This document shows positions 10,246 to 27,556 of a stretch of 27,556 nt of DNA, piece after piece (the stretch's first letter is position 1; each line of letters opens with the position of its first letter). The position numbers and the translations under genes are program-made. The notes beneath the pieces were generated by a model. It made no database searches, was not told the DNA's origin, and saw only the letters and a program-made list of their open reading frames with translations. Source of the stretch: an uncultured Gammaproteobacteria bacterium (GTDB lineage: Bacteria; Patescibacteriota; Patescibacteriia; UBA11705; DATKZF01); assembly GCA_964411255.1 (NCBI GenBank), contig CAYPKD010000004.1:178147-205702 (forward strand), in the 5' to 3' direction.

Positions 10246-10667
10246 TCTCTAATTAATTCAGCCACTTCATGCAATTCCTTTTCAGGTGAAATTTCTCTTG
10301 ATCCTGGTCGATATAAAAATTTTCTTGGATCATATTGATGAATTCCCGTATCTTTTGGCTTTCTGGGAATTAAATGTAAATGAAAATGAGGAATAGACTG
10401 CCCAGCATCTTTGCCCTCATTCCAGGCGTGATTAAATCCAGTGACGCCAAACAATTCCATAAGCGCTGGTTTTAGTTCCTCAGCCAAATCCAGCACAGCC
10501 ATTATTTCATCTTCTGTCATCTTTTCAATTGCTTCTACCTGTCTTTTTGGCACAATTAAAATATGACCAGGCACAATCGGCATATTTGTCGGAAAAGCAT
10601 AAGCCAAATCATTTTCAATAATGATTCTGTTTTTTATATCTTCTAAGTCATTAAATGAAATTGGCAT
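10236..10667 (-). CDS. HIT-family (histidine triad) nucleotide hydrolase/transferase
   Basis: The histidine triad is HFHLHLIP (HxHxHxx), and the N-terminal core is GHILIVPKR. Confidence 0.8.
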   Translation of the reverse strand: MPISFNDLEDIKNRIIIENDLAYAFPTNMPIVPGHILIVPKRQVEAIEKMTEDEIMAVLDLAEELKPALMELFGVTGFNHAWNEGKDAGQSIPHFHLHLIPRKPKDTGIHQYDPRKFLYRPGSREISPEKELHEVAELIRDKL

Positions 10668-10669
10668 AT

Positions 10670-11044
10670 TTATCTATTACCTTGCATTACTCCAAAAACA
10701 TTCCCCTCTGGATCTTTACAATAAGCGTGAAACCCAATTCCTGGAATTTCCATTTTGTCTTGAATAATTTGGCCGCCATTTTCTTTCACTTTTTCCAAAC
10801 CCTGATCGATATCAGGCACATCAATAGTGCAGACATATGCAATTATTGATTCTCCGCTTATTGGCGTCACTCGTTCCTTAATTGCTCCGTCAATTCCAGG
10901 TTCATCTTTTAAACCAGTTTCAATCAACCAATAATTTATTGGGCCTTCCCATTTTTTAATTTTCCAAGCAAATGTTTTTGAATAAAATTCACCCAACTTG
11001 TCAGGGTCATCAGCGTGGATCTCAAAGTGTACTACTCTTGGCAT
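10670..11044 (-). CDS. VOC/glyoxalase-bleomycin-resistance-fold protein
   Basis: A VHFEIHADDPDKLGEFY start and a paired beta-alpha-beta-beta-beta module pattern are present, with GxxFxV at the C-terminal end. Confidence 0.7.
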   Translation of the reverse strand: MPRVVHFEIHADDPDKLGEFYSKTFAWKIKKWEGPINYWLIETGLKDEPGIDGAIKERVTPISGESIIAYVCTIDVPDIDQGLEKVKENGGQIIQDKMEIPGIGFHAYCKDPEGNVFGVMQGNR

Positions 11045-11061
11045 ATTTTTTATTTTATTTT

Positions 11062-11268
11062 TTATACCTTTTGTTTTGGCACTATAAAAATCAAATATAA
11101 ACTAACTACCCAAAGACCAAGGCTTATATAAAGCACAAAATTTGGCATTACATACCAATTTGAAAAATACGCAATTACTTTTGCTGCAATGCCCAGCAAT
11201 GATATAATTAATAAAATTTTTCCAGCTAAGTTGAAATTTACAGGCACTAAACCTGGAGGATATTTCAT
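11062..11268 (-). CDS. Possible small membrane protein (68 aa) starting at the internal Met of the track ORF 11062-11436
   Basis: The track ORF runs through the tRNA gene and so cannot be real upstream of about 11330. The C-terminal 68 codons (MKYPPGLVPVNF...) are hydrophobic and may be real. Confidence 0.3.
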   Translation of the reverse strand: MKYPPGLVPVNFNLAGKILLIISLLGIAAKVIAYFSNWYVMPNFVLYISLGLWVVSLYLIFIVPKQKV

Positions 11269-11675: not shown

Positions 11676-12548
11676 ATGGCTCAAGTTGATATGCACATAC
11701 ATTCGCATTTTTCAGATGGATCAGATTCTCCTACTCAAATCGTTCAAAAAGCAAAATCACTTGGATTAAAAGCAATTTGTCTGACTGACCATGACAATTA
11801 TGAAGGCTTGCCAGAATTCGTTCAGGCTTGCAGGGAACATAATATGAATTTTCTTTGCGGTATTGAAATAATGACATTTTTTCAGGGAATAAAGATTGAA
11901 ATACTGGCTTATGGCATTGATTTGCCCAGAGATGAAAAGTTAAAAGACATACTTTCTAAAAATTGGAAAGCTCATAATTTAAAAGTTCAAAAAATGCTTA
12001 ATGGATATTCTGAACATGGAATTTTTACTGCCACAGTAAACGATATTAAAAGAGCAATGGATTATAAAGGACCGTTTGCCACCAAGGCTTGGCTACGGGA
12101 ATTTAGAGTTCAGGAATTTGATGTTGAGAAAAAGCAAGCCAAACAAGAAACTGCCAAAAATGGTGTGGCTTATGCGCCATACGATCAAGATAAATTCATT
12201 ACTCCAGAAGAAGTGTTTGATTTTGTTCATGCGCTCGGCTGGAGAGCAGTTTTAGCTCATGGCGGAGTTATCAGCAAAGAAATACCTGAGTTTCAAAAGT
12301 GGACAGATTTTATTAAACTTCTTGTTTTGCAATTAAAACCGCTTGGTTTATTCGGAGTTGAAGCATATCACTACCGAAATGAAAAACAATATACTGAATT
12401 TCTTGTTCAAATGGCCCGAGAGCATGGCTTGGCAATAACTGGCGGATCTGATTATCATGGCAGATTTCAATCAAGGCAAATCGGGCAATTTGCAATCAGT
12501 TATGAAAATTTTTTGCAATTTAAAGAGCTAATAAACATAACCGCGTAA
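11676..12548 (+). CDS. PHP-domain phosphoesterase (TrpH/YciV-like; 3',5'-nucleoside bisphosphate phosphatase / RNase AM family), paralog 1
   Basis: The N-terminus MHIHSHFSDGSDSPTQIVQKAKSLGLKAICLTDHDN carries the PHP motif I HxH and motif II DHD. Later metal-ligand histidines are LAHGG and GGSDYHG. Confidence 0.8.
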   Translation: MAQVDMHIHSHFSDGSDSPTQIVQKAKSLGLKAICLTDHDNYEGLPEFVQACREHNMNFLCGIEIMTFFQGIKIEILAYGIDLPRDEKLKDILSKNWKAHNLKVQKMLNGYSEHGIFTATVNDIKRAMDYKGPFATKAWLREFRVQEFDVEKKQAKQETAKNGVAYAPYDQDKFITPEEVFDFVHALGWRAVLAHGGVISKEIPEFQKWTDFIKLLVLQLKPLGLFGVEAYHYRNEKQYTEFLVQMAREHGLAITGGSDYHGRFQSRQIGQFAISYENFLQFKELINITA

Positions 12549-12636: not shown

Positions 12637-13530
12637 ATGCCTTTTGAAGCTGATATGCATAGCCATTCATACTATTCTGATGGTTATAATTCTCCAGCTG
12701 AATTAGTCAAAACAGCAAAATCCCAAGGGTTAAAGGCAATTTGTCTGACAGATCATGATAATTTTAACGGCATACATGAATTTATCAGAGCCTGCAAATT
12801 AGCACGACTTGATTTCATCCATGCAATTGAGCTGACAACTACCTATAAAGGTGTAATCGTTCATATATTAGGCTATGGATTAGATCTGAATAATCACACT
12901 CTTAATAAAGTGGTCTTTTCTCAATGGTATGTTCATAACCTCAGAATGACTCAAATATTGAGAAAATATAGAAAAAAAAAGGTTATGGATGTTTCATTGG
13001 ATAATTTAAAAAGGTCAGTCCAATGCAAAGGCCCTTGTATGTTTGACACTTGGCTAATAGATTTTCGCATGAGAATGGCTGAAATTTCTTTTGAACAAGC
13101 AAAAAATGAAATTAGCGGTAATGGATTTGTTAATACTGAATATGATAGTGAATTATTACTCACTGCCCCTCAGGCAGTAGATCTAATTGATAATGCTGGA
13201 GGATTAGCAGTGATTGCTCATCCTGGTGAAATAAGAAGAAGGCTTGAAAACAGAGGGATTCACGTAAATTGGAATAATTTCATTCAATTATGTATTTCCA
13301 TTCTTGAAAACCAGGGTTTAGCTGGAATAGAAGTGTCTCATCCCAGAAATGATGATGAACAAACTGAATTTTTAACCCATCTGGCAGATCAACGAGGATT
13401 AATAAAATTTGGCGGGTCTGATTATCATGGAAAATTTAAATCATATCTTCCTGGTCAATGCGGCATTAGTTATAAAGCTTTTCAGCAGATTAAAGCCAAA
13501 ATTATTAAAAAAAGACCGCGAAAATCGTGA
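12637..13530 (+). CDS. PHP-domain phosphoesterase (TrpH/YciV-like), paralog 2
   Basis: MHSHSYYSDGYNSPAELVKTAKSQGLKAICLTDHDN is collinear with paralog 1, as are IAHPGE and GGSDYHG. Paralog 2 has a basic C-terminal tail, KKRPRKS. Confidence 0.8.
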   Translation: MPFEADMHSHSYYSDGYNSPAELVKTAKSQGLKAICLTDHDNFNGIHEFIRACKLARLDFIHAIELTTTYKGVIVHILGYGLDLNNHTLNKVVFSQWYVHNLRMTQILRKYRKKKVMDVSLDNLKRSVQCKGPCMFDTWLIDFRMRMAEISFEQAKNEISGNGFVNTEYDSELLLTAPQAVDLIDNAGGLAVIAHPGEIRRRLENRGIHVNWNNFIQLCISILENQGLAGIEVSHPRNDDEQTEFLTHLADQRGLIKFGGSDYHGKFKSYLPGQCGISYKAFQQIKAKIIKKRPRKS

Positions 13531-16628: not shown

Positions 16629-18128
16629 CTAATGACCAATTTTAAATATCTCAACTTTATTTGTTGCCATTACACCAAGCTTTATCCGATCATCAGATGA
16701 AGCATAAAGAGTAAATAATTTCTCACCTTTCTTTATCCTTTGACCAAAAAACGCATGCAAATGAACTCCCGCAAGCTTATCGCTTGGCGCACCAAGGTTC
16801 ATGCAAATTTCTTTAATTGCCTTGTTGTCAACAAAATTAATTTTACCCGTTTTTTTAGCATGAATTTCATATCTTTTAGCGCCAGAAGTGAAATCTTCTG
16901 AATGCTGGTCAGCTTTTCCGCCTTGCGCGATTACAATTTCATTCATTTTATCCCAGGCAGCGCCTGAAGTTAATTGCCGCATGGCAATTTTTCTGCCCTG
17001 ACCTTTTTTTGCAAACCCTTTTAATTCTAATAATTCACCTGCTAGTTTTACTGATTTTCTTTCTAAATCAAGCGGACGAAGCTCATGCCTTTGCAAAACT
17101 CTGAATACATCCCGAGCTTCCAGCGCTGGGCCAATTCCTCTGCCCAGCGGCTCTACGGCCTTTGTTTTCACTGCTTTTACCTTCATACCAAACCTTTTTC
17201 CCAAAGCAATGAATTTCTTCTCGATCATATTTGCTTTTGCCATATCAGGCACTTTGGTTGTCGGTCCGACCGGAATGTCAATAATTAAATAATCAACACC
17301 GGTCGCCACTTTTTTAGCTAAAATACTAACAATCATTTTATCATACGGCTCAAGAGCCAATGGTTTTGAAACTTTTATAATCTTATCATCAGCTGGAGCA
17401 AGGCTTAGTCCCCCGCCCCAAACCAGACAGCCATGTGTCTTTTTTACAATTTTTTTAATCTCATCCATTGAAAATGATACTGGGCAAATTACTTCCATTG
17501 TGTCTGCTGTACCTGCCGGAGATGTAATTGCTCTGGATGAAGTCTTTGGGATATATAGCCCGAGCGAAGCGATAATTGGAATAATTAACGGCGTAATTCT
17601 ATTACCTGACAGGCCGCCGACTGAATGCTTATCTACAGCTTTAACATTCAGGTTCATTTTCTCACCAGTTTCAGCCATTGCTTTTGCCACGTAATAGAGC
17701 TCGTCAAGCGAATAATCTTTTACAAAACTGGAGGCAGCATAATAAGTGGTTTCAACCGAACCTAGCACTCCGTCAACAATATCTTTAATAACCGCATAAA
17801 TTTCTTTGTATGTTACTGGTTTTCCCATTAACTTTTTATTTATTGTCTGAATAGAAAGTGGCCGGCTCATAATGCTGGCTTCAACAATATCGCCTGATTC
17901 TACTTGCACTTTTTTCCATACTTCCTTGAACAAGCCTAATTCTCCAGGTCGAACCTTTGTATTTGTCGTATCAGCGGTAACGATCGCTTTTTTATTTTTA
18001 CTCCAAATCAAATTCAACCTGTCTCCAGGATAAATTCCATAGCTTTCCGCTTCATCTTCATTTAAAACAGCGATCATTTTATCGCCTGTTGAAAAATCCA
18101 ATTTTTTGCATTTTAAATAAAACGCCAT
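16629..18128 (-). CDS. AMP phosphorylase (thymidine-phosphorylase family II enzyme with an N-terminal extension)
   Basis: At 499 aa it is longer than a classical TP. It has glycosyltransferase-family-3 core motifs (SVGGLSGNRITP, TSSRAITSPAGTADT) and a C-terminal alpha/beta domain, and it sits next to RuBisCO and the R15P isomerase. Confidence 0.8.
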   Translation of the reverse strand: MAFYLKCKKLDFSTGDKMIAVLNEDEAESYGIYPGDRLNLIWSKNKKAIVTADTTNTKVRPGELGLFKEVWKKVQVESGDIVEASIMSRPLSIQTINKKLMGKPVTYKEIYAVIKDIVDGVLGSVETTYYAASSFVKDYSLDELYYVAKAMAETGEKMNLNVKAVDKHSVGGLSGNRITPLIIPIIASLGLYIPKTSSRAITSPAGTADTMEVICPVSFSMDEIKKIVKKTHGCLVWGGGLSLAPADDKIIKVSKPLALEPYDKMIVSILAKKVATGVDYLIIDIPVGPTTKVPDMAKANMIEKKFIALGKRFGMKVKAVKTKAVEPLGRGIGPALEARDVFRVLQRHELRPLDLERKSVKLAGELLELKGFAKKGQGRKIAMRQLTSGAAWDKMNEIVIAQGGKADQHSEDFTSGAKRYEIHAKKTGKINFVDNKAIKEICMNLGAPSDKLAGVHLHAFFGQRIKKGEKLFTLYASSDDRIKLGVMATNKVEIFKIGH

Positions 18129-18140
18129 ATAGTATTTATA

Positions 18141-19406
18141 TTATTTTTTCCAAAACTGTAAAGCCCTTGCCAATTCTTCATGATCTTCTGAATATTCTTT
18201 TAATTTTACTCCACGCTCAATGGCTTGCACTGCCTGGCGGCAAGCCCTGGCGCCGGCAACTGAACCGTCTGGATGGCCGTGAATACCAGCGCCAAAATTG
18301 GCGATTAGATTTATTCCGAGTATTTCAACCAATTTAGGCAAAAGCCCTGGATGCAAACCACCAGAAGCAATTGGCAAAACCGGTTTAATTTTACTCCAAT
18401 CCTCTTTGACAATATTGTGGCTTTTCCAGTCTTCCTTCATCAATTGATTTACTGTTAAAACATCTTCCCGATCGCCCTCCATTTTACCAACTACTGTTCC
18501 AGTATGCAATTGGTCAACTCCGGCCAGTCTGGCTAATTTTGCAATAACCAGCATACTCATCCCATGTTTTTTATTTCTGGTAAATAATGCGTGTCCTGCC
18601 CGGTGGCCATGAATTATTAATCCTAAATTTTTCTTTCGTAAATATTGTACATTATCTAAACCAGTTGAAACGATATCAACCATCACGCATTTTCCACCCA
18701 ATTTTTTCACTAATTTTGCCCGTTCAAGCATTTGTTCAGGCGGTGCAGTAATATTACAGGCATATACTTTTTTCTGTTTTGTTTCTTTTTCAACTTTTTT
18801 CTTCCAATACAAAACCTTTTTCACTCTGTCTGCAAAACGGTTAAAGCTCATGTTAGTTAAATTCTCATCGTCTTTAACCAAATCAATGCCATTCAGCCAT
18901 ACAGCAGCTGACAATTTTGCCTGCTGGGCCGCAGTTAAACCTACTTTTGGTTTTATAATACTTCCTAAAATCACTCTGCCTTTTATTTTTAAAATCTTTC
19001 GGATGCCGTCAATGCCAAATGCCGGCCCCTTAAAACTGGCGCTGTATTTCACTGGAAATTCAATATCTTCCCATCTTAAATTTTTTATTAACTTCATACC
19101 GTAAATATTGCCTCCAATGCTTGATAAAAGTTGAGGAATACTGCCCCTTTCAAATAAATCTAAAGGATAAGCAACTTTTATTATCTTTTTCTTTTCATTT
19201 GCAAAAAAGACTCTGGCCTTTAATTTTTCTGCTAATTTGGGGTTCAGTGTCTGTAATTCTGTCCATGATCCAATAGAACTCTCCCCAGCAACTGCATCAG
19301 CTGCTTCCTGAAAGCTGACTCCTCTTGGCTCAACATAAAAAGTAGCGATAATTTCCTTATCCTTTTTTGGCTTGTATCCAATTTCAACAAATTTTACTAC
19401 TGACAT
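18141..19406 (-). CDS. rbcL: RuBisCO large subunit, short form II/III-like (421 aa)
   Basis: The motifs GIDLVKDDENL (GxDFxKDDE), IIKPKVGL (KPKLGL), IHGHRAGHA (HxHRAxH) and ASGGLHPG are present. No small subunit is present. Confidence 0.85.
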   Translation of the reverse strand: MSVVKFVEIGYKPKKDKEIIATFYVEPRGVSFQEAADAVAGESSIGSWTELQTLNPKLAEKLKARVFFANEKKKIIKVAYPLDLFERGSIPQLLSSIGGNIYGMKLIKNLRWEDIEFPVKYSASFKGPAFGIDGIRKILKIKGRVILGSIIKPKVGLTAAQQAKLSAAVWLNGIDLVKDDENLTNMSFNRFADRVKKVLYWKKKVEKETKQKKVYACNITAPPEQMLERAKLVKKLGGKCVMVDIVSTGLDNVQYLRKKNLGLIIHGHRAGHALFTRNKKHGMSMLVIAKLARLAGVDQLHTGTVVGKMEGDREDVLTVNQLMKEDWKSHNIVKEDWSKIKPVLPIASGGLHPGLLPKLVEILGINLIANFGAGIHGHPDGSVAGARACRQAVQAIERGVKLKEYSEDHEELARALQFWKK

Positions 19407-19410
19407 AACA

Positions 19411-19502
19411 TTGATAGTTACGAAGTTATGATGTTATGAAGTTACGTTGTTATTTAAAATATATATAACGTCGTAACTTAGTAACCTCGTAACATCATAA
19501 CG
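19411..19502. repeat. Imperfect palindrome of about 90 bp built from heptamer units (AGTTAYG on the left, CGTAACT-type on the right) around an AT-rich centre, lying between the HAD-like gene stop and the RuBisCO start
   Basis: The sequence is TTGATAGTTACGAAGTTATGATGTTATGAAGTTACGTTGTTAT-TTAAAATATATAT-AACGTCGTAACTTAGTAACCTCGTAACATCATAACG. Confidence 0.6.
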
Positions 19503-19914
19503 ATTTTATTAGTTTTACAATTTTTTCAATATCATCTAAGGCGAAGTCAACTTCATCTGTTTCATTATTTTTACTAAACAAAACTGTTTTAATTCCTACT
19601 TGTTTTGCTGGAAGCAAATTGCTAATAAGATCATCAATCATTAAACATTCTTCTGGTTTTATATTCAAATCATTTATAAATTTTTGATATGTATTTGCAT
19701 CTGTTTTACTTTGGCCTGATTCAGCGCAGGCAATGATAGGATCAAGCCCTAACTGATTTCCAATCTCTTTCACTGTGTTTGGAGATAAATTACTAATGGT
19801 TGCATTAATAATCCCTTTTGCTTTTAACTGTTCAACAATATCCTTGGCTTTAGGGTCAATCTGGCCATTTTTATAAACCACGCCATATAAATCCCAAATA
19901 ATTGCTTTAATCAT
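19495..19914 (-). CDS. Small HAD-like hydrolase domain protein (139 aa; a possible phosphatase)
   Basis: IIWDLYGVV sits at the motif-I position (DxDGx-like, with the second Asp replaced), and MIDDLISNL sits at the motif-IV position. It is short for a HAD enzyme, so the assignment is tentative. Confidence 0.45.
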   Translation of the reverse strand: MIKAIIWDLYGVVYKNGQIDPKAKDIVEQLKAKGIINATISNLSPNTVKEIGNQLGLDPIIACAESGQSKTDANTYQKFINDLNIKPEECLMIDDLISNLLPAKQVGIKTVLFSKNNETDEVDFALDDIEKIVKLIKSL

Positions 19915-20851
19915 ATTTTTTTTTCAAAAACTTATACTTCTTTGTCGTTTTCTTTGAAATATATTTTGGTTTTAATATTCCCAATTCTGTAATAAAACCT
20001 GTGATAAACCTGGCAGGAATAATATCAAATGCATAATTTATAATTTCCAATCCCTTTGGCGCTCTGGACCAAATTTCATTTGCTTTTCTTTGTTCAATTT
20101 CTAAATTTTTCAAATGTTTAGTTTCAATATCAAGCTTTAATGCCTGAGTTGCTATATATACTGGAATTTTTGCTTCACGCGCTGCTAAGGCCAGGCCTAA
20201 AGATCCTATCTTATTAACTGCATCACCGTCCAAAGTAATTGCATCACAGCCTAAAATTAATAAATCCATATCATATCCTTTGCTATACTGGCTGACAAAA
20301 AACGGACCTGCGCTGTCAACCACTTGGGTATTTTTAATATTCATTTTTAATAATTCTTTTGAAGTCGTTCTGCCCTGAAATAATGGCCTGGTTTCATTAT
20401 TAAAAACATGGATTTTTTTTCTTTTCTTTTTGGCCGCTTCTAATATACTTATTGCGGTAGAGGAATGACAATGAGTAAAGATATTATCATTATTACTAAT
20501 CAATTTCTCACCATAATCTTTAATAATTCTTTTATTTGTCATTATTTCAAATAAAAAACTGTCAATTCCTCTTTTTATTAAAACTCTTAACTTTTTTATA
20601 TCTAAATCCTGATTTTTATCTAAATGATATGAAACAAATCGTACAGCATTTTCTGCCATTGGCTCTGTTTCTCTGGCCCTGCTCAAGTAATATCCAATTT
20701 TTTTCACTCTGCTGATTAATTGACGGGGAGTTTTCAGCCTTTTCTCCTGAGAAACTTTTTTTAAGGTATTTAAAACAGCTTCAGCTATATTGGTTGCCCC
20801 CTGAATTTCAATGTTAACGATTTTTTTATAAATTTGGTCGATGTAATTCAT
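19907..20851 (-). CDS. Ribose-1,5-bisphosphate isomerase (eIF-2B alpha/beta/delta-like e2b2 family)
   Basis: An e2b2/MtnA-fold signature (GATNIAEAVL ... ILGCDAITLDGDAVNKIGS) is present. Its stop overlaps the HAD-like start by 8 nt. Confidence 0.75.
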   Translation of the reverse strand: MNYIDQIYKKIVNIEIQGATNIAEAVLNTLKKVSQEKRLKTPRQLISRVKKIGYYLSRARETEPMAENAVRFVSYHLDKNQDLDIKKLRVLIKRGIDSFLFEIMTNKRIIKDYGEKLISNNDNIFTHCHSSTAISILEAAKKKRKKIHVFNNETRPLFQGRTTSKELLKMNIKNTQVVDSAGPFFVSQYSKGYDMDLLILGCDAITLDGDAVNKIGSLGLALAAREAKIPVYIATQALKLDIETKHLKNLEIEQRKANEIWSRAPKGLEIINYAFDIIPARFITGFITELGILKPKYISKKTTKKYKFLKKKYD

Positions 20852-20901: not shown

Positions 20902-22326
20902 TTATAAATAAAATTCTTCTCCCATTTTTGGCACTTCAACTTTGCCAGTAAACTTATTAATATTATACAAATTATCTCTCATCACTAGACTTTCAGTTTC
21001 TTCCCCATGCACACAAAATACTTTTCTCAGGCCTTTCAAATTTCGCGCGAATTCTAAAAGTTCAGGCTTGTCAGCATGGGCGGAAAAAGAATTTAGCACA
21101 ACAACATCAGCTCTAACCGCATATTTTTGCCCAAAAATAGTCACATTTCTTTCTTTTTCCACAATTGCTCTGCCTAAAGTTCCACGCGCCATATACCCAA
21201 TTACCAGAATCAAATTCTTTGGATTTGAAATATTAAACTTCAAATGATGCTGAATTCGCCCAGCCTGGCACATACCAGAAGCTGAAATAATAATACAAGA
21301 TTTTTTATACGAATTTAATTTCTGTGATTCTTTTCTGCTTATAATATAATGCAAACCTTCAAAATAAAACGGGCTTTGCCTTTTTTTTAAAAATTCTACA
21401 GCAGCTTCCTTGTCATATGCTTCTGGATGTCTGACAAAAACTTTTGAAATTCGAGTGGATAACGGGCTATCTACAAATATTTCAATTTTTGGAATTTTCT
21501 TTTGTTCATACAATGAATGCAAAATATAAACCACTTCCTGTGTTCTTTCCAGAGAAAATCCTGGCACAATAATTTTACCGCCTCTGTTTACAACGTCATT
21601 AATAATCCATTTTAACTCTTGCTTGGCCTGACCGATTGATTCATGCAAATGGCTGGCATAAGTGGTCTCAGTAATTAACACATCTGCTCGATCAACTTTT
21701 GCCGGATCATTTAGAATTGGCATTCCGCGCCGGCCTAAATCTCCAGTAAAGACCACTCTTAGCTCCTTGCTGCCTTCTTTCATATCTGCAATGATCATTG
21801 CTGAGCCTAAAACGTGCCCAGCTTCTACTAATCTTGCTTTGCAGCCTGGAATAACCTGAAATTCAGTATTATAACGATGAGTTGTCATTAATTTCAAAGT
21901 TCTTCGAACGTCATCTTCATCATATAATGGCTCAACCTTTTTTTTCTGATGTTTCCAAATATGTTCAGCATCCTGCTTTTGTATTTTAGCAGAATCTAAA
22001 AGTAAAAGTTCAAGCAGCTCTTTAGTTATTTGCGTACAATGAATAGCGCCTTTAAAACCGCTGCGAACAAGACGAGGAATATTTCCAGCATGGTCAATGT
22101 GAGCATGACTTAAAACCATAGCTTTCACTTCTCTTGGATCAAATAAAAAACTGCGATTCTTCTTTTCTGCTTCCCCCCTTTTTCCTCCTTGAAAAAGTCC
22201 GTAATCAAATAGAATCTTTTTGCCATTTATTTCAAATAAATGCCGTGAGCCAGTCACTTCCCGGCTAGCGCCGCATGGTTTGTAAAGCATTTTTTTGTTT
22301 TTATTTCTTACTTTATTATAACACAA
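20902..22326 (-). CDS. Metallo-beta-lactamase / beta-CASP family ribonuclease (CPSF-/RNase J-like, with an RMMBL C-terminal motif)
   Basis: It has the HxHxDH motif LSHAHIDHAGNIP, a beta-CASP region, and the C-terminal GHADKPELLEF...VHGEE motif. Confidence 0.75.
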   Translation of the reverse strand: MCYNKVRNKNKKMLYKPCGASREVTGSRHLFEINGKKILFDYGLFQGGKRGEAEKKNRSFLFDPREVKAMVLSHAHIDHAGNIPRLVRSGFKGAIHCTQITKELLELLLLDSAKIQKQDAEHIWKHQKKKVEPLYDEDDVRRTLKLMTTHRYNTEFQVIPGCKARLVEAGHVLGSAMIIADMKEGSKELRVVFTGDLGRRGMPILNDPAKVDRADVLITETTYASHLHESIGQAKQELKWIINDVVNRGGKIIVPGFSLERTQEVVYILHSLYEQKKIPKIEIFVDSPLSTRISKVFVRHPEAYDKEAAVEFLKKRQSPFYFEGLHYIISRKESQKLNSYKKSCIIISASGMCQAGRIQHHLKFNISNPKNLILVIGYMARGTLGRAIVEKERNVTIFGQKYAVRADVVVLNSFSAHADKPELLEFARNLKGLRKVFCVHGEETESLVMRDNLYNINKFTGKVEVPKMGEEFYL

Positions 22327-22352: not shown

Positions 22353-23795
22353 TTAGTTAAAATAACACAAAATTCCCTGAACAGAATGCCAAATATTTGT
22401 ATAAATTGCTAAAAGCAGCAGCAAAACTATAAAAATCAGTAATGGCCAGGATACTTTGCCTTTTGTAAATTCAACATGCTTTTTTTGAGCTAAAATTCCT
22501 TTTTGCTCTGCATTTAGGCCATTCAATGCTGCTAAAATTATGAAAAATAATATTAAACTGATTGAAAAATCAAAATTAAAGTTCATCCAGATAAAATATG
22601 CTGCTAAACTTGAAAATATTGCTAAAATTTCAATACTTTTATTTTTTAATCCCTGCCAGATTAAATGTAAAATTTTAACCCATATAAACAAATAAATTAT
22701 TAAGCCAATAAAACCAGTGTTTATAAGTACATCTAAAAACACATTATGCACCCGGTCAGAAATTCGGTCATCAATTGCCATTTCCTGCTCAGAAATTTGC
22801 CTTTCCGTGGACAAATACATGTAAGTTTCAGGGCCATAACCTAAAATCGGCCTTTGCAGGATTTTTGACCAGGCAAATTTATAATCCTGCATTCGAGTAT
22901 AGCCTGTACTCTGGCTAAATCCTTCGCTTGTTCTGGTTTTTATCAGTCCTTTATAAAAACCAACAACAATAACTATCAATACTACAAAAATTATTAAATG
23001 TTTATAATATTCTTTTTTCTTTGGAAAAAATATTATCAAGCAAATAATAAAAACAAGCATTGAGCCTGCAAATGCCAGCCAGGCGCTTCTGGTTAAAGTT
23101 AAAATTAAAGAAACAACCTGTAAAATAATTATGAAAAAAAACAGCACTTGCCAAACATTTTTTTTGCTTTTCCAGGCTAATAAAAATGTAAAAATTATTA
23201 TCATTGATAAAAACAAGCCTAAATAATTTGGATGGCCTAAAGTAGAAAATGATCGGCTAAAAACTTTATCAGCTGAAGCATAAAATGTATGCAAAGTTGG
23301 AAAATCAATTCCAAAGCTTTGCAAAATCGCATAGAGACAAACTGGTACTGACACAAAAGCTAAAATCTTTATTATTTTATAAAATTTGCTTTTTGAAATT
23401 AAATCCTTAATTAAAAAAAATAATAAAATTCCATGGCCGATTGTGAATAACCCCATCAATCTGTCATCCAGCCCTAATATACTTTCTGAAAAATGAGTGG
23501 AAAAGAACGAAGCTAATGAATACACCAGTACATATAAAATTAATAAAAATTCTAAGGAAAAAAAATTGTATTTTTTTAGTTCATTATAAATTTTAACTAA
23601 AACCTGTTTTAAATTTTTACATCTTACCAGCCAAATTATAAAAATTATTTCCACGAAAAAACGAAAAATTGTAATACTGTCAAGTTCATAGGGCATGCAT
23701 GACCATAAATTAAAAAACAGCGGCGTAATAATTAATATTGCCAATAAGATTTTAAAAGCAAGGTATTCAAATGTTTGACTGCAAATACTTTTCAT
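22353..23795 (-). CDS. O-antigen ligase / Wzy_C-like polytopic membrane protein (possible O-oligosaccharyltransferase or polymerase)
   Basis: It has about 10 TM helices and a periplasmic-loop signature LTRSAWLAFAGSMLVF (the R...SxxA pattern of WaaL/PglL/Wzy_C). Confidence 0.55.
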   Translation of the reverse strand: MKSICSQTFEYLAFKILLAILIITPLFFNLWSCMPYELDSITIFRFFVEIIFIIWLVRCKNLKQVLVKIYNELKKYNFFSLEFLLILYVLVYSLASFFSTHFSESILGLDDRLMGLFTIGHGILLFFLIKDLISKSKFYKIIKILAFVSVPVCLYAILQSFGIDFPTLHTFYASADKVFSRSFSTLGHPNYLGLFLSMIIIFTFLLAWKSKKNVWQVLFFFIIILQVVSLILTLTRSAWLAFAGSMLVFIICLIIFFPKKKEYYKHLIIFVVLIVIVVGFYKGLIKTRTSEGFSQSTGYTRMQDYKFAWSKILQRPILGYGPETYMYLSTERQISEQEMAIDDRISDRVHNVFLDVLINTGFIGLIIYLFIWVKILHLIWQGLKNKSIEILAIFSSLAAYFIWMNFNFDFSISLILFFIILAALNGLNAEQKGILAQKKHVEFTKGKVSWPLLIFIVLLLLLAIYTNIWHSVQGILCYFN

Positions 23796-23863: not shown

Positions 23864-24136
23864 CTATTTCAAGTCTATACCTTCCCGTAATTCCAAATCT
23901 GCAGGGCCTGGCTTTACATTAGCCGGCAATTCTGGAATTTCCTTTTGTTTCAGCGGCGGATATGTCCGAATTTGCTTTTTCGGTATGGTCTTGAAGATAA
24001 AAGGATAGCCAAAGCCATAGCCTTTGCTTCTACCCACTGCGCTTAAAATACCAAAAGCCGCTGCTGCCACAGCTACAATAGCCACTGCAGTTACAACCTT
24101 TTGCTTAGTCGTAGTTTGAGTCTTTACATTTGCCAT
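23864..24136 (-). CDS. Small single-TM protein, paralog P2 (90 aa), with an Ala-rich TM helix and a Pro-rich C-terminal tail
   Basis: MANVKTQTTTKQKVVTAVAIVAVAAAAFGILSAVGRSKGYGFGYPF is 80% identical to P1 over the N-terminus and TM helix. The tail is divergent and Pro-rich. Confidence 0.6.
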   Translation of the reverse strand: MANVKTQTTTKQKVVTAVAIVAVAAAAFGILSAVGRSKGYGFGYPFIFKTIPKKQIRTYPPLKQKEIPELPANVKPGPADLELREGIDLK

Positions 24137-24171: not shown

Positions 24172-24414
24172 CTACCTCAAGCCCTCATATTTTTGATGAG
24201 GCGGTACAAATTTGAAATCTGGGGCTGTCTTTTTTGGATTAATTGGAATTTCAGGATATGTTTTTTTCTGAATCACAAAAGGCCAGCCAAATCCATATCC
24301 TCTGCTTTTACCCACAGCAGTTAAAATCCCAAATGCTGCAGCTGCCACTGCTACAATGGCAATTGCTGTTATAACTTTTTGTTTGGTTGTGGTTTGCGTT
24401 TTTAATTTAGCCAT
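24172..24414 (-). CDS. Small single-TM protein, paralog P1 (80 aa)
   Basis: MAKLKTQTTTKQKVITAIAIVAVAAAAFGILTAVGKSRGYGFGWPF is followed by TYPEIPINPKKTAPDFKFVPPHQKY. Confidence 0.6.
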   Translation of the reverse strand: MAKLKTQTTTKQKVITAIAIVAVAAAAFGILTAVGKSRGYGFGWPFVIQKKTYPEIPINPKKTAPDFKFVPPHQKYEGLR

Positions 24415-24451: not shown

Positions 24452-24655
24452 CTACAAAGAAATGTCGTATTTCAAATGCGGAGGCACAATTTTCAACTCT
24501 GGCGCAGTCTTTTTTGGATTAATCGGAATTTCAGGATATGTTCTTTTCATTATTATAAAAGGTCGACTGAACGCCTGCGCCCAGTTATTGCCTGCCGCAG
24601 CCAAAACTCCCAGCACTGACGCAAATATGGCAATAATGGTAAAAACCAAAATCAT
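24452..24655 (-). CDS. Small single-TM protein, paralog P3 (67 aa from the internal ATG). The ancestral start codon appears to have mutated, ATG to ATA.
   Basis: The C-terminal tail TYPEIPINPKKTAPELKIVPPHLKY is nearly identical to P1 at the DNA level. Upstream, the in-frame translation IKSKNKTTIKQK is homologous to P1 and P2 MAKLKTQTTTKQK, but it has no ATG, GTG or TTG, and an in-frame TAA lies further upstream. Confidence 0.5.
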   Translation of the reverse strand: MILVFTIIAIFASVLGVLAAAGNNWAQAFSRPFIIMKRTYPEIPINPKKTAPELKIVPPHLKYDISL

Positions 24656-24782
24656 TTTCTGTTTGATAGTTGTTTTATTTTTAGATTTTATTATATTTTC
24701 TTTATTATTTAATTCTTTACTTTAATTTAAAATTATTTTTTTCTACCAATCAACTGATCTACCGATCTACCAACCTACCAAT

Positions 24783-25955
24783 TTAATCAATTTTATCAAA
24801 TGGAACATTTGTCCATTCTGAAATAATCTTTTTTATATCAAATGCAATCACTTCTGGTCTTTCACCATGCATTTTATCCATTTTATGTTCTTTTTCTGCT
24901 TCTTCTACTTTACTGGCTACTTTTACAATTTTTTTTCTAACTTTTTCTAATTTTTCTTTGTCCCTTTCTCTTTTTTGTTCATTTTTTAATTTATTAAGTT
25001 CGCTTAACAAATCTTTTATCTTATCTGGCGCTGCATCAACTCTTTGCCGAACCTGTGATGAAGCTTTTCCTATTAATTCAATTGCACTGTGCGGCTGCGC
25101 ATATGCCTTTAGACTTTTAGCAGCGCTTGCTTCGTCAATAACATCTATTGCTTTATCAGGCAACATTCTTTTTTTAATATATTTTTCTGATAAATTTACT
25201 GCAGCGTCAATCGCCTCATCGCTAATTTTTACTTGATGATAATCTTCATACGTTTTTTTTAGACCTTTCAAAATTTCAATGGTCATCTCAATTGTCGGCT
25301 CTTCAACTTCAATTGGCTGAAATCTGCGTTCCAAGGCTTCATCCGGCTTAATATATTTTTCAAATTCTTTGGTTGTAGTTGCACCAATTGCATGAAGCTC
25401 ACCCCTGGCCAAAGCTGGCTTTAATACGTCAGAAATATTTACAGCCCCTTCTGTACCTTTTGTCTGAACCAGCATATGTACTTCGTCAATAAATAAAATA
25501 ATATCATCCTTAGACTCAATAATTTCATTCACCAAACTTCGAATACGCTGTTCAAACTCACCCCTGTACTTTGTACCAGAAATCATGTCAGCCAAATTTA
25601 GTGATAATATCTTTTTATCTTTCAAAAGATCTGGCACATTGCCAGTTATAATTTTTAAAGCCAGTCCCTCGATCACAGCTGTTTTACCAACACCTGCATC
25701 ACCGATTAAAACCGGATTGTTCTTTGTTTTTCTGGATAAAATCTGAATTACTCTGTCTGTTTCTTTATCTCTTCCAATTATTGGCGTTAATTCCCCGTTC
25801 TTTGCTTTTTCTGTCAGATCTTCTGTAAATAAATTTAAAGTTGATTTTTTTGATAATAATTTTCTACCAAAAAGCTTGTCCCGATAATACCATAAAATAA
25901 AAATCAAGATGAGAAATGCCAGAATATATTGCCAATTATTTAGTAGAAAATTCAT
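24783..25955 (-). CDS. Membrane-anchored AAA+ ATPase made of a single ClpA/ClpB-type D1 module plus a coiled-coil (M-domain-like) segment. It has no N-domain and no D2.
   Basis: An N-terminal TM helix (NWQYILAFLILIFILWYY) is followed by Walker A GDAGVGKTA, Walker B IILFIDEVH, sensor-1 IGATTT, the Arg finger ALERRFQ, and the Clp D1 landmarks LIGDAGVGKTAVIEGLA and LDKAIDVIDEA. It ends at ISEWTNVPFDKID, exactly where D2 would begin (compare VSRWTGIPV), and a stop codon follows. Confidence 0.7.
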   Translation of the reverse strand: MNFLLNNWQYILAFLILIFILWYYRDKLFGRKLLSKKSTLNLFTEDLTEKAKNGELTPIIGRDKETDRVIQILSRKTKNNPVLIGDAGVGKTAVIEGLALKIITGNVPDLLKDKKILSLNLADMISGTKYRGEFEQRIRSLVNEIIESKDDIILFIDEVHMLVQTKGTEGAVNISDVLKPALARGELHAIGATTTKEFEKYIKPDEALERRFQPIEVEEPTIEMTIEILKGLKKTYEDYHQVKISDEAIDAAVNLSEKYIKKRMLPDKAIDVIDEASAAKSLKAYAQPHSAIELIGKASSQVRQRVDAAPDKIKDLLSELNKLKNEQKRERDKEKLEKVRKKIVKVASKVEEAEKEHKMDKMHGERPEVIAFDIKKIISEWTNVPFDKID

Positions 25956-26010
25956 ACTTTAATTATAACATACTTCAAAATTATGATTTGTATGATATTA
26001 ACAGCTAAAA

Positions 26011-26706
26011 TTATGTAAATTTTTTAATATCTTGTTCATTCAAATGCTTAAATTCCCCAACTTTTAAATTTCCTAATTTTAGTTTATTAATTCTAATTCT
26101 GTGCAATTTTTTTACTTCAAAACCTAGTCTTTCGCACATTCTGCGAATTTGCCTCTTTTTCCCTTCTCTTAATATAATATTAAATTTTCTTATACCAAGC
26201 TGCTGAACTTTTGCTGGCAAAGTCTTTCCTTCTTCAATAACCACTCCTTTTTGCATTTTTTCAATAAATTCTTTGGTAATTTCTTTATTTATCTCAACTT
26301 CATATTCTTTTTCCTTTTCATATCGAGGATGAGTTAATTTCAATGCTAAATCTCCGTCATTTGTTAAAATTAAAAGTCCGCTTGAATTTTTATCAAGCCG
26401 ACCGACAGGAAAAATTCTTTGCTTTTCTTTTACTAAATCAAGCACAATTTTGCCTTTTTCTTTACCTTTTTTCACTGTGGATAAGTATCCAACTGGCTTA
26501 TTTAGCATAATATAAATCTTTTCTTTTTTAGGTTTAACAATTTTGCCATTAAATTCAATCTTGTCTTTAAAATCAATCTTTGTTCCAAGCTCTCGCACAA
26601 CATTGCCATTAACTTTAACTTTTCCTTGCAAAATAAACTTCTCGGCTCTACGCCGAGATGCTATACCGCAGTCTGCTAAATATTTTTGTAAACGAATTTT
26701 TTCCAT
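26011..26706 (-). CDS. RsuA/RluB-family pseudouridine synthase with an N-terminal S4 RNA-binding domain
   Basis: The S4 domain is RLQKYLADCGIASRRRAEKFILQGKVKVNG, and the catalytic motif GRLDKNSSGLLILTNDG carries the Asp. Confidence 0.8.
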   Translation of the reverse strand: MEKIRLQKYLADCGIASRRRAEKFILQGKVKVNGNVVRELGTKIDFKDKIEFNGKIVKPKKEKIYIMLNKPVGYLSTVKKGKEKGKIVLDLVKEKQRIFPVGRLDKNSSGLLILTNDGDLALKLTHPRYEKEKEYEVEINKEITKEFIEKMQKGVVIEEGKTLPAKVQQLGIRKFNIILREGKKRQIRRMCERLGFEVKKLHRIRINKLKLGNLKVGEFKHLNEQDIKKFT

Positions 26707-26731: not shown

Positions 26732-27556
26732 TCAAACCCTAACAATCCTTTTTACATAATTATCACCTTCTTGGGCAATAATATAAGCAGTGTTACCTTC
26801 TAAATGCTCAAAGTGATAAATTTTATCACATTCTTCACTGACTTTTTCTCCTTTTTCATTCACTATAAACCATTTGCCGTCTTTTTGTGCTGCAAAAGCA
26901 ATTTTACCTCCAATATCTTGCGGGGCACCAACCTTATCATAATCCTGCCCGACTTTTTCTCCTTTTTCATTTACTATAAATGCCTTGCCATCTTTTTGTG
27001 CTCCAAAAGCAATCCTACCTCTAATATCTTGTGGAACCGAAACATTATCATAATCCTGCCCGACTTTTTCTCCTTTTTCATTTACTGTAAACCATTTATC
27101 ATCTTTTTTTGCTGCAAAAACAATCCTGCCTCCTATATCATGTGGCCTCCAAACATGATCATAATCCTGCCCGACTTTTTCTCCTTTTTCATTTATTATA
27201 AACCATTTTTCATCTTTTTTTGCTCTAAAAACAATTTTACCACCAATATCTTGTAGGTCATAAACCTCATCATAATCCTGCCCAACTTTTTCTCCTTTTT
27301 CATTTACTACAAACCATTCGGTGCCATTATGTGCTACAAAAACAATCCTACCTCCAATATCTTGCGGTTCATCAACCTGATCATAAACCTGCCCAACTTT
27401 TTCTCCTTTTTCATTTACTATAAAATATTTTCCATCTTTTTTTGCTCTAAAAGCAATTTTGCCTCCAATATCTTGCGGATCCCAAACATTATCATAATCC
27501 TGCCCGACTTTTTCTCCTTTTTCATTTACTGTAAACCATTTATCATCTTTTTTTGC
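26732..27556 (-). CDS. C-terminal part of a repeat protein made of 37-aa WG-like (here KWF) beta-repeats. The N-terminus lies beyond the right edge.
   Basis: Own translation of the minus strand gives repeats of the form ...AKKDDKWFTVNEKGEKVGQDYDNVWDPQDIGGKIAFR AKKDGKYFIVNEKGEKVGQVYDQVDEPQDIGGRIVFV..., and the reading ends in ...YVKRIVRV-stop, with the TGA being the reverse complement of 26732-26734. The frame is open to the window end. The + strand track ORF 26804-27256 is the antisense shadow of this gene. Confidence 0.7.
   Translation of the reverse strand, partial: AKKDDKWFTVNEKGEKVGQDYDNVWDPQDIGGKIAFRAKKDGKYFIVNEKGEKVGQVYDQVDEPQDIGGRIVFVAHNGTEWFVVNEKGEKVGQDYDEVYDLQDIGGKIVFRAKKDEKWFIINEKGEKVGQDYDHVWRPHDIGGRIVFAAKKDDKWFTVNEKGEKVGQDYDNVSVPQDIRGRIAFGAQKDGKAFIVNEKGEKVGQDYDKVGAPQDIGGKIAFAAQKDGKWFIVNEKGEKVSEECDKIYHFEHLEGNTAYIIAQEGDNYVKRIVRV
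26834..27556. repeat. 111-bp tandem DNA repeats (at least 6.5 copies) that encode the 37-aa protein repeats
   Basis: The anchor CTGCCC(G/A)ACTTTTTCTCC recurs at 26945, 27056, 27167, 27278, 27389 and 27500, an exact 111-nt spacing. Confidence 0.8.

Follow-up and report, generated by a model that had tools for sequence, protein, structure and literature searches.

The stretch of DNA described here (27,556 nucleotides, positions 178,147 to 205,702 of contig CAYPKD010000004.1; below: the window) carries a gene for an AAA+ protein of 390 residues at 24783-25955 on the minus strand. Judged from its sequence, this protein is a derivative of the first ATPase ring (D1) of the Clp/Hsp100 proteins with ClpC as its nearest relative. 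The second ring (D2) is missing, and a single N-terminal transmembrane (TM) helix is predicted to tether the protein to the membrane. On balance, the evidence points to an active membrane-tethered single-ring AAA+ translocase, derived from the D1 and middle (M) module of a ClpC-like Hsp100. Two stacked rings are the defining trait of ClpA/B/C-type Hsp100 unfoldases, and the natural single-ring relatives known to us (ClpX, HslU and human CLPB/Skd3) are all of the D2 type. Here, a natural D1-only ring is found that is widespread, conserved and, by prediction, membrane-tethered. If it is active, D1 would be able to serve as a stand-alone motor and bacteria would possess an Msp1-like extractor of membrane proteins that works without a protease. 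The conserved neighbouring genes, which were missed by the original prediction (a note made from the sequence alone), are probably the most informative clue to its function.

The open reading frame (ORF) is real: it starts with ATG and terminates at the stop codon 24783-24785, and the strand, which had not been given before, is the minus strand. In the 390-residue protein, Pfam recognizes an AAA domain (residues 82-213) followed by AAA_lid_9 (residues 222-289), and no match was obtained for Clp_N, AAA_2 (PF07724), ClpB_D2-small (PF10431) or Peptidase_M41. The NCBIfam models for ClpB, ClpA, ClpV/TssH, ClpG and ClpK were matched over their D1 part alone, far under their full-length cutoffs: 381 bits for ClpB (profile positions 152-404 of 853; cutoff 1232), 347 bits for ClpA (cutoff 993) and 352 bits for TssH (cutoff 885). 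The earlier claim of collinearity with ClpB/ClpC D1 is borne out by a phmmer search of the PDB, in which residues 38-389 align with residues 160/161-491 of the S. aureus and B. subtilis ClpC (810-818 residues in full; E 9e-93). ClpC comes first in this search (S. aureus 6em9/6em8 and B. subtilis 3j3s; 305-315 bits, with 315 bits for the best match over ClpC 161-491), followed by ClpC1 and ClpB (285-298 bits) and ClpA (242 bits). All 45 matches at E<=1e-10 are Clp/Hsp100 proteins. The D1 core is about 55% identical to ClpC-like as well as ClpB-like D1s, and the latter two are 62% identical to each other.

An AlphaFold2 model, with an alignment of 70 homologues as input, reached a mean pLDDT of 90.5. 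It starts with an N-terminal helix (residues 2-28) and a poorly ordered linker (around 29-38), followed by the large and lid subdomains of D1. A helical hairpin (311-329 and 333-364), a short strand (368-369) and a helix (371-382) complete the model, the last two elements with a pLDDT of 96-98. Foldseek, too, ranks ClpC structures first in the PDB, over about 355 aligned columns. Like ClpC, the protein displays the Walker motifs, the Arg fingers, the KYRGEFE pore loop, a single coiled-coil M-domain and the WTGIP segment. Unlike ClpC, it contains a TM helix in place of Clp_N and lacks D2, ClpB_D2-small and the ClpP-docking loop. In other words, the D1 module of the class I Clp/Hsp100 proteins (ClpA/ClpB/ClpC) is there, whereas D2, the N-domain and scores above the full-length cutoffs are not. 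In the databases, members of the family are named either 'ATP-dependent Clp protease ATP-binding subunit' or 'AAA family ATPase'. A defence-system identity was considered with PADLOC and rejected, as only weak generic AAA matches were found.

The conservation of the family supports the view that an active motor is held by purifying selection. In an alignment of 70 sequences (mean column identity 47%), the residues of the ATPase core read from the sequence are largely invariant. The Walker A motif or P-loop (G85-D-A-G-V-G-K-T92; 25680-25703, minus) is invariant at G85 and G88-T92, and the Walker B motif (I153-L-F-I-D157-E158; 25482-25499, minus) at I153, F155, D157 and E158. The two Arg fingers (R210-R211 in ERRFQ; 25323-25328, minus) are likewise invariant; in the D1 of ClpB and ClpC they act in trans, on the neighbouring subunit. 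The small (lid) subdomain of D1 spans residues 221-290 (25086-25295, minus; AAA_lid_9 in Pfam) and includes the motif LPDKAID (265-271), of which L265-A269 and D271 do not vary. Pore loop 1 (G127-T-K-Y-R-G-E-F-E135; 25551-25577, minus) aligns with the GTKYRGEFE of ClpC, and the pore-loop tyrosine that had been pointed out in it, Tyr130, lies within an invariant stretch (G127-G132, with E135 invariant as well). The majority-residue frequency is 0.63-0.73 in D1 and 0.50 in the C-terminal return segment. It falls to 0.30 in the anchor, where the hydrophobic character is kept, and to 0.29 in the M region.

These frequencies also bear on a different role, in which the protein would not thread polypeptides at all. 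It could be a membrane tether or regulator that co-assembles with or recruits full-length ClpB/ClpC, or else an ATP-binding switch or scaffold for neighbouring surface proteins. Some Patescibacteria do possess full-length ClpB-like proteins that might be recruited (loci L016 and L022, labelled Saccharibacteria, and L020, labelled 'bacterium'), and in ClpB and ClpC the M-domain is a site for protein docking. Such a role is nevertheless unlikely: the pore-loop Tyr and its flanks are invariant, for which a scaffold would have no need, and it is precisely the M region that is least conserved and has been deleted in some members.

In the membrane-tethered translocase that we prefer, one N-terminal helix would span the membrane, its N-terminal end outside, and a linker some 15 residues long would hold the D1 ring beneath it. 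In ClpB and ClpC, the N-domain caps the face of D1 where substrates enter. Since the anchor stands in for this N-domain, the pore entrance would face the bilayer. Six subunits would form the ring, and ATP hydrolysis would drive the Tyr130 pore loops. These loops would take hold of a tail exposed in the cytosol and draw the polypeptide away from the membrane or out of it, to be released into the cytoplasm. The released chains or anchor remnants would go to other proteases; ClpP would be unable to dock, since the loop needed for this is part of the missing D2. The protein would thus work like Msp1/ATAD1, or like an FtsH without its protease.

Several known systems can be set beside this design. 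Human CLPB/Skd3 is a natural single-ring derivative of Hsp100 that is associated with a membrane-bounded compartment and combines a D2-type ring with ankyrin repeats. It represents the converse truncation: there the D2-type ring has been kept, here the D1-type ring. The likeness to Msp1/ATAD1 lies in one N-terminal TM anchor (predicted here), one AAA ring, an aromatic pore loop and a membrane-facing entry. Msp1 is, however, eukaryotic and shows no close sequence kinship; the functional likeness is one of analogy. Msp1 is described as a membrane-anchored AAA+ protein that extracts membrane proteins (PMC12793716). Two further papers present FtsH as a membrane-anchored AAA+ protein working on membrane proteins (PMC7949044) and the TM anchor of YME1L as the driver of its hexamerization (PMC5095350). 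FtsH/YME1L, as classic-type AAA rings, and the window protein would have in common a membrane-anchored AAA ring that acts on membrane proteins and an anchor that promotes hexamerization. They differ in that the window protein lacks the M41 protease, has one TM helix instead of two and belongs to a different AAA lineage.

The C-terminal ...IISEWTNVPFDKI aligns with ...VIAGWTGIPLTKI of ClpC, ahead of D2 (phmmer, PDB), and the protein stops one residue later. The return segment (residues 366-390, PEVIAFDIKKIISEWTNVPFDKID; 24786-24860, minus) forms the terminal strand and helix of the model, closing the D1 lid, and its residues P367, V369 and W381 are at least 90% conserved in the 70 homologues. 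No Pfam model matched the C-terminal 36 residues. The original prediction placed the end of the protein at the Trp motif, which is correct, and took this motif as the opening of D2, which is not the best reading. More plausibly, it is the element with which the D1 small subdomain closes after the M insertion, since it is kept in members without an M region and since the PDB rigid body 6emw_D (the depositors' D1-small plus M) extends to residue 385 of the query. The M region itself (residues 291-365; 24861-25085, minus) aligns with the M-domain of ClpC and is modelled as a ClpC-type single coiled-coil hairpin. Hence, the middle coiled coil proposed earlier is indeed present, but not merely its start: the hairpin (311-329/333-364) is complete. 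This single coiled-coil M-domain, typical for the ClpC subfamily, is absent in some relatives. Across the family, the spacing between E275 and W381 falls into length classes of 31-114 residues, the M region being poorly conserved and deleted in some members. The terminal segment and the end point are kept whatever the length of M, the last residue of most members lying 9 positions past the conserved Trp.

Two engineered proteins end at almost this boundary: ClpC(1-485) with MecA (PDB 3PXG) and ClpB NBD1-M (PDB 4HSE), to which residues 37-369 and 39-368 of the query align, respectively. These are soluble laboratory truncations, of which 3PXG retains the N-domain, whereas the window protein is natural, conserved and, as predicted, membrane-anchored.

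As claimed before, there is little room for a D2 downstream: the next ATG-started ORF begins 127 bp away (at 24655). With the D2 of ClpC as a probe (residues 341-670 of P0113; tblastn, E<=10), no D2 remnant was found in this 127-bp gap or elsewhere in the 27.5-kb window, which answers the question of a downstream remnant raised earlier. The same type of search (tblastn, ClpC D2 query) detected no D2 in 203 kb around 19 D1-only genes. A protein homologue search started from the ClpC D2 yielded only pieces of ordinary ClpC from other phyla, none of them named Patescibacteria, and so speaks neither for nor against a D2-only partner. A ClpP gene was not seen among the window genes either, nor a D2, and the ClpP-docking (I/V)G(F/L) loop is absent along with D2.

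A rival reading is a split two-ring Clp. In that case, a D2 half, perhaps with ClpP docking, would be made from a separate, distant gene and would bind non-covalently under the D1 ring. The D1 lid has been kept in full, down to the segment by which ClpC passes into D2. Also, the separately expressed NBD1 and NBD2 of Thermus ClpB reportedly reconstitute activity, as Beinker et al. are said to have found in 2005. It further counts against the single-ring reading that the D2 search covered the window and the 203 kb at 19 loci rather than whole genomes. On the other hand, split genes normally stay adjacent, and no D2 adjoins the gene in any of the 19 loci or in the window. The exchange of the N-domain for a TM helix and the monophyly of the family favour a redesigned protein over a recent split. 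We therefore hold a split Clp to be improbable and retain the single-ring design, intact and neither a pseudogene nor a local split, as the original prediction had it, in view of the conserved family, the invariant residues and the lack of D2 in the window and the 203 kb.

The N-terminus shows the features of a membrane anchor. Residues 1-39 comprise the TM helix and linker in place of the Clp N-domain, and residues 1-60 were not matched by any Pfam model. The helix core (codons 8-24, WQYILAFLILIFILWYY; 25884-25934, minus) is followed by RDKLFGRKLLSKK and was delineated from hydropathy, flanking charge and the AlphaFold2 helix 2-28. Residues 3-21 have a mean Kyte-Doolittle value of 2.0, with no positive charge before them and a net charge of +4 after them. 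The same pattern is found throughout the family: of 120 homologues, nearly all carry a hydrophobic 19-mer (residues ~3-25; Kyte-Doolittle ~2), with a net charge of about 0 or below before the helix and of +2 to +5 after it. The replacement of the Clp N-domain by a hydrophobic helix, as stated earlier, is thereby corroborated. According to the positive-inside rule, the charged flank of a TM helix is cytoplasmic. Because the positive charge sits after the helix, an N-out/C-in anchor with a cytoplasmic AAA domain is predicted.

It could be objected that a hydrophobic stretch at the extreme N-terminus may also be a cleaved Sec signal peptide, the ATPase being exported. This is very improbable. A basic n-region and an AXA-type cleavage site are both lacking, the Arg/Lys cluster lies C-terminal of the helix, and the core of 17-19 residues is longer than a typical h-region. 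Moreover, an exported ATPase would find no ATP outside the cell. The earlier choice of an anchor over a signal peptide can thus be maintained as a prediction.

More than 100 homologues of 340-400 residues (45-55% identity) share this architecture and end point; homologues with the same truncation point, for which a search had been suggested, are therefore plentiful. They come from Patescibacteria, being named Falkowbacteria, Magasanikbacteria, Uhrbacteria, Doudnabacteria, Parcubacteria or Patescibacteria group, and in nearly all the C-terminus lies a few residues past a (V/I)xxW motif. In a distribution scan with one genome per GTDB species, D1-only genes with a TM helix occurred solely in records labelled Patescibacteria, save for L012 (labelled Gammaproteobacteria). 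The many matches from Chloroflexota were ordinary ClpC proteins with N-domain, D1 and D2. In a neighbour-joining tree of D1 cores, rooted on ClpB-like D1s, all 78 D1-only sequences form one clade. Although the sampling is limited and a distance method was used, this supports a single old origin of the family. After clustering at 50%, the family is reduced to about ten clusters amid ordinary Clp proteins, and no informative domain fusions were seen among the representatives. The top multi-stretch matches, P0241 and P0242, were rejected as fusions, being duplicated or chimeric. No account of the family turned up in the full-text literature searched, a collection in which most subscription journals are lacking. 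The retention of the gene in reduced genomes of about 1 Mb suggests an important role in the envelope, which for episymbionts is the interface of host attachment.

That the gene is a truncated pseudogene or an assembly artefact of a normal clpC, as its short length alone could suggest, was rejected: the protein is carried without any change by 10 contigs (JGI, ENA and Logan assemblies), the homologues have the same ends, the catalytic residues are invariant and no D2 remnant lies downstream.

The genes beside the AAA+ gene offer concrete candidate substrates, and this link is the one most worth following. No Pfam-labelled neighbour is conserved across the classes; the link was seen when the N-termini of unannotated neighbours were compared. 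The shared signature consists of a Thr/Lys-rich N-terminal tail of 10-35 residues (for example MAKLKTQTTTKQK, MKTITKTK.., MPTKK.. or MTKTTTQTTTATK), one TM helix rich in Ala, Val, Ile and Gly and, where this helix ends on the outer side, often the motif (A/G)YGFG(F/W/Y). No Pfam or NCBIfam model covers this N-terminus. The ectodomains that follow vary from about 40 to about 650 residues and contain either no Pfam domain, an acidic double-disulfide repeat or CARDB plus DUF11.

In the window, three small paralogues follow the AAA+ gene on the minus strand. The closest (24452-24697) is degenerate: its ATG-started ORF (24452-24655) encodes 67 residues, the in-frame codons upstream read ..KSKNKTTIKQK without a canonical start there, GYGFG has been lost, and the family hidden Markov model (HMM) finds it with E=0.0012. 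The second (24172-24414) is a bitopic protein of 80 residues with the tail MAKLKTQTTTKQK, a TM helix and GYGFGWPF, and is a candidate client or partner of the AAA+ protein. The third (23864-24136; 90 residues) has the same order of tail, TM helix and GYGFGYPF.

Such genes are found beside the AAA+ gene in about 14 of the 19 loci. They adjoin it directly in the window, L005 (9238-9939 and 9955-10305), L015 (two copies), L017, L018, L092 (directly upstream, 18-bp gap), L093 (on both sides, gaps of 6-17 bp) and L094. In L012 and L013 the signature gene lies one gene further off, within about 1.3 kb. When an HMM of four Falkowbacteria N-termini was run against the 3182 ORFs of all loci, the best non-self matches were all located downstream of D1-only genes. 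A feature-based definition of the signature, set beforehand, yielded 14 ORFs within 3 kb of the AAA+ gene (a zone that makes up 58% of the sequence searched) versus 1 beyond (binomial P=0.0035). Expressed per 10 kb, the rate is 1.45 near the AAA+ gene and 0.14 far from it, compared to 0.30 in 560 kb of Chloroflexota ClpC loci. This distance-based test was used in place of a greedy ORF-adjacency test, which was underpowered and confounded by spurious ORFs. A profile of the N-terminus (A3) searched against a database of 5.8 billion proteins added just two small proteins (P0390 and P0391), because the profile is short. The contig of P0390 opens with the 3' end of a D1-only gene (...IVAEWSGRAEV..., up to the stop codon), and two signature genes come next. 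That of P0391 breaks off 47 bp upstream and has the same order of small gene and Wzy_C-type gene as the window.

Tentatively, the neighbours may be dedicated clients or partners of the AAA+ protein. Candidate clients or partners would be these co-encoded single-pass surface proteins, with their Thr/Lys-rich tails in the cytoplasm beside the TM helix. It is conceivable, though doubtful, that the TM-anchored D1-only ATPase and the tail-TM-(A)YGFG proteins form an undescribed, Patescibacteria-specific system: an Msp1-like dislocase for a new class of N-terminal signal anchors. By its grip on the cytosolic tails, such a dislocase would pull out, recycle or remodel surface proteins or what is left of their anchors. 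Its surface clients would include adhesin-like CARDB/DUF11 proteins, Cys-rich proteins and tiny, maybe glycosylated proteins.

A number of points weigh against the preferred reading as a whole. In L008, L019 and L021 (CARDB/DUF11 proteins) as well as in L009 and L010, the neighbours fit the signature more loosely, and in L011 and L014 no convincing signature gene adjoins the AAA+ gene. About 3 of the 14 near ORFs look spurious, as does the single far one, which brings the contrast to about 11 vs. 0. Because many of the loci are related and single-pass anchored proteins are frequent here, the statistics lack full independence. With regard to the motor, D2 is usually the stronger one in two-ring Hsp100s, and ClpC by itself assembles only with the adaptor MecA; for both reasons, a lone D1 may thread weakly. 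Finally, we infer hexamer formation, the direction of threading, the identity of the substrates and the fate of the extracted chains, the hexamer from the trans-acting Arg fingers and, by analogy, from the precedent of the YME1L anchor.

Around the AAA+ gene itself, a few sequence elements can be mentioned. A promoter-like TTTACA-16-TATCAT (26019-25992) lies upstream of the ATG within the region 25962-26019 (minus). It is putative, and the consensus scan from which it comes gave a total site count no higher than in shuffled sequence. The same region contains TGTTATAAT (25962-25970, minus), an extended -10-like element with its end just 6 nt from the ATG, and a Shine-Dalgarno sequence is not obvious upstream of the start codon. 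The transcript could possibly be leaderless or near-leaderless; alternatively, the element arose by chance in AT-rich DNA. Right after the stop codon, four GGTAG pentamers occur within 35 nt (attGGTAGgttGGTAGatcGGTAGatcagttgattGGTAG; 24745-24779, minus). Within the window, the pattern GGTAGNNNGGTAG is confined to this stretch (2 matches vs. 0.21 expected). As RNA, the stretch has no stable fold (z=0.33), and its conservation does not extend to the orthologous spacer of L005.

The window lies within a 364-kb JGI contig. On the minus strand, a repeat protein and an RsuA/RluB/RluF-type pseudouridine synthase precede the AAA+ gene, and the three small paralogues are followed by a polytopic membrane protein resembling Wzy_C or O-antigen ligase (22353-23795, minus). 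The small genes precede a gene of this type in L005 and L097 as well. We take the Wzy_C-type family to include protein O-oligosaccharyltransferases, and some of the small signature proteins have ectodomains rich in Thr, Ser and Asn. For these two reasons, the Wzy_C-like protein might glycosylate the small anchored proteins, and in Falkowbacteria the proposed dislocase system may be coupled to this adjacent enzyme. In a locus from Magasanikbacteria (L093), the D1-only gene and the tail-TM genes on either side of it share their strand with a gene for a PilB/T2SSE-type ATPase (10495-11173) further downstream, and an FtsH gene (1-1838) is located two genes upstream of the D1-only gene.

Beyond the Wzy_C-like gene, the minus strand continues with a beta-CASP nuclease, ribose-1,5-bisphosphate isomerase (IF-2B family), a HAD protein, a form II/III-type RuBisCO, AMP phosphorylase, a DsbA-like protein and DUF4153. 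The nuclease (beta-CASP/MBL; 20902-22326, minus) has the type VII CRISPR-associated Cas14 as top NCBIfam match (403 bits, cutoff 800) and the archaeal aCPSF1 as the second (280 bits); neither a CRISPR array nor any further cas gene was noticed in its vicinity. The next four genes form a complete cluster for AMP/nucleoside salvage (16629-20851, minus), as is typical for the candidate phyla radiation: the isomerase (19907-20851), the HAD hydrolase (19495-19914), the RuBisCO large subunit (18141-19406) and an AMP phosphorylase-like protein (16629-18128). The remaining genes of the window are the ordinary housekeeping genes of a small genome. On the plus strand, two tandem paralogues of about 290 residues (11676-12548 and 12637-13530) have an N-terminal PHP-domain match only. 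The repeat protein gene, upstream of the pseudouridine synthase gene, contains a 111-bp tandem repeat (26840-27556 and beyond the window end; minus coding) of at least 6.5 copies with 82% match. It encodes units of 37 residues (..KDGKWFIVNEKGEKVGQDYDxVxxPQDIGGKIxFxA..) that make up the C-terminus of a large protein without a Pfam match.

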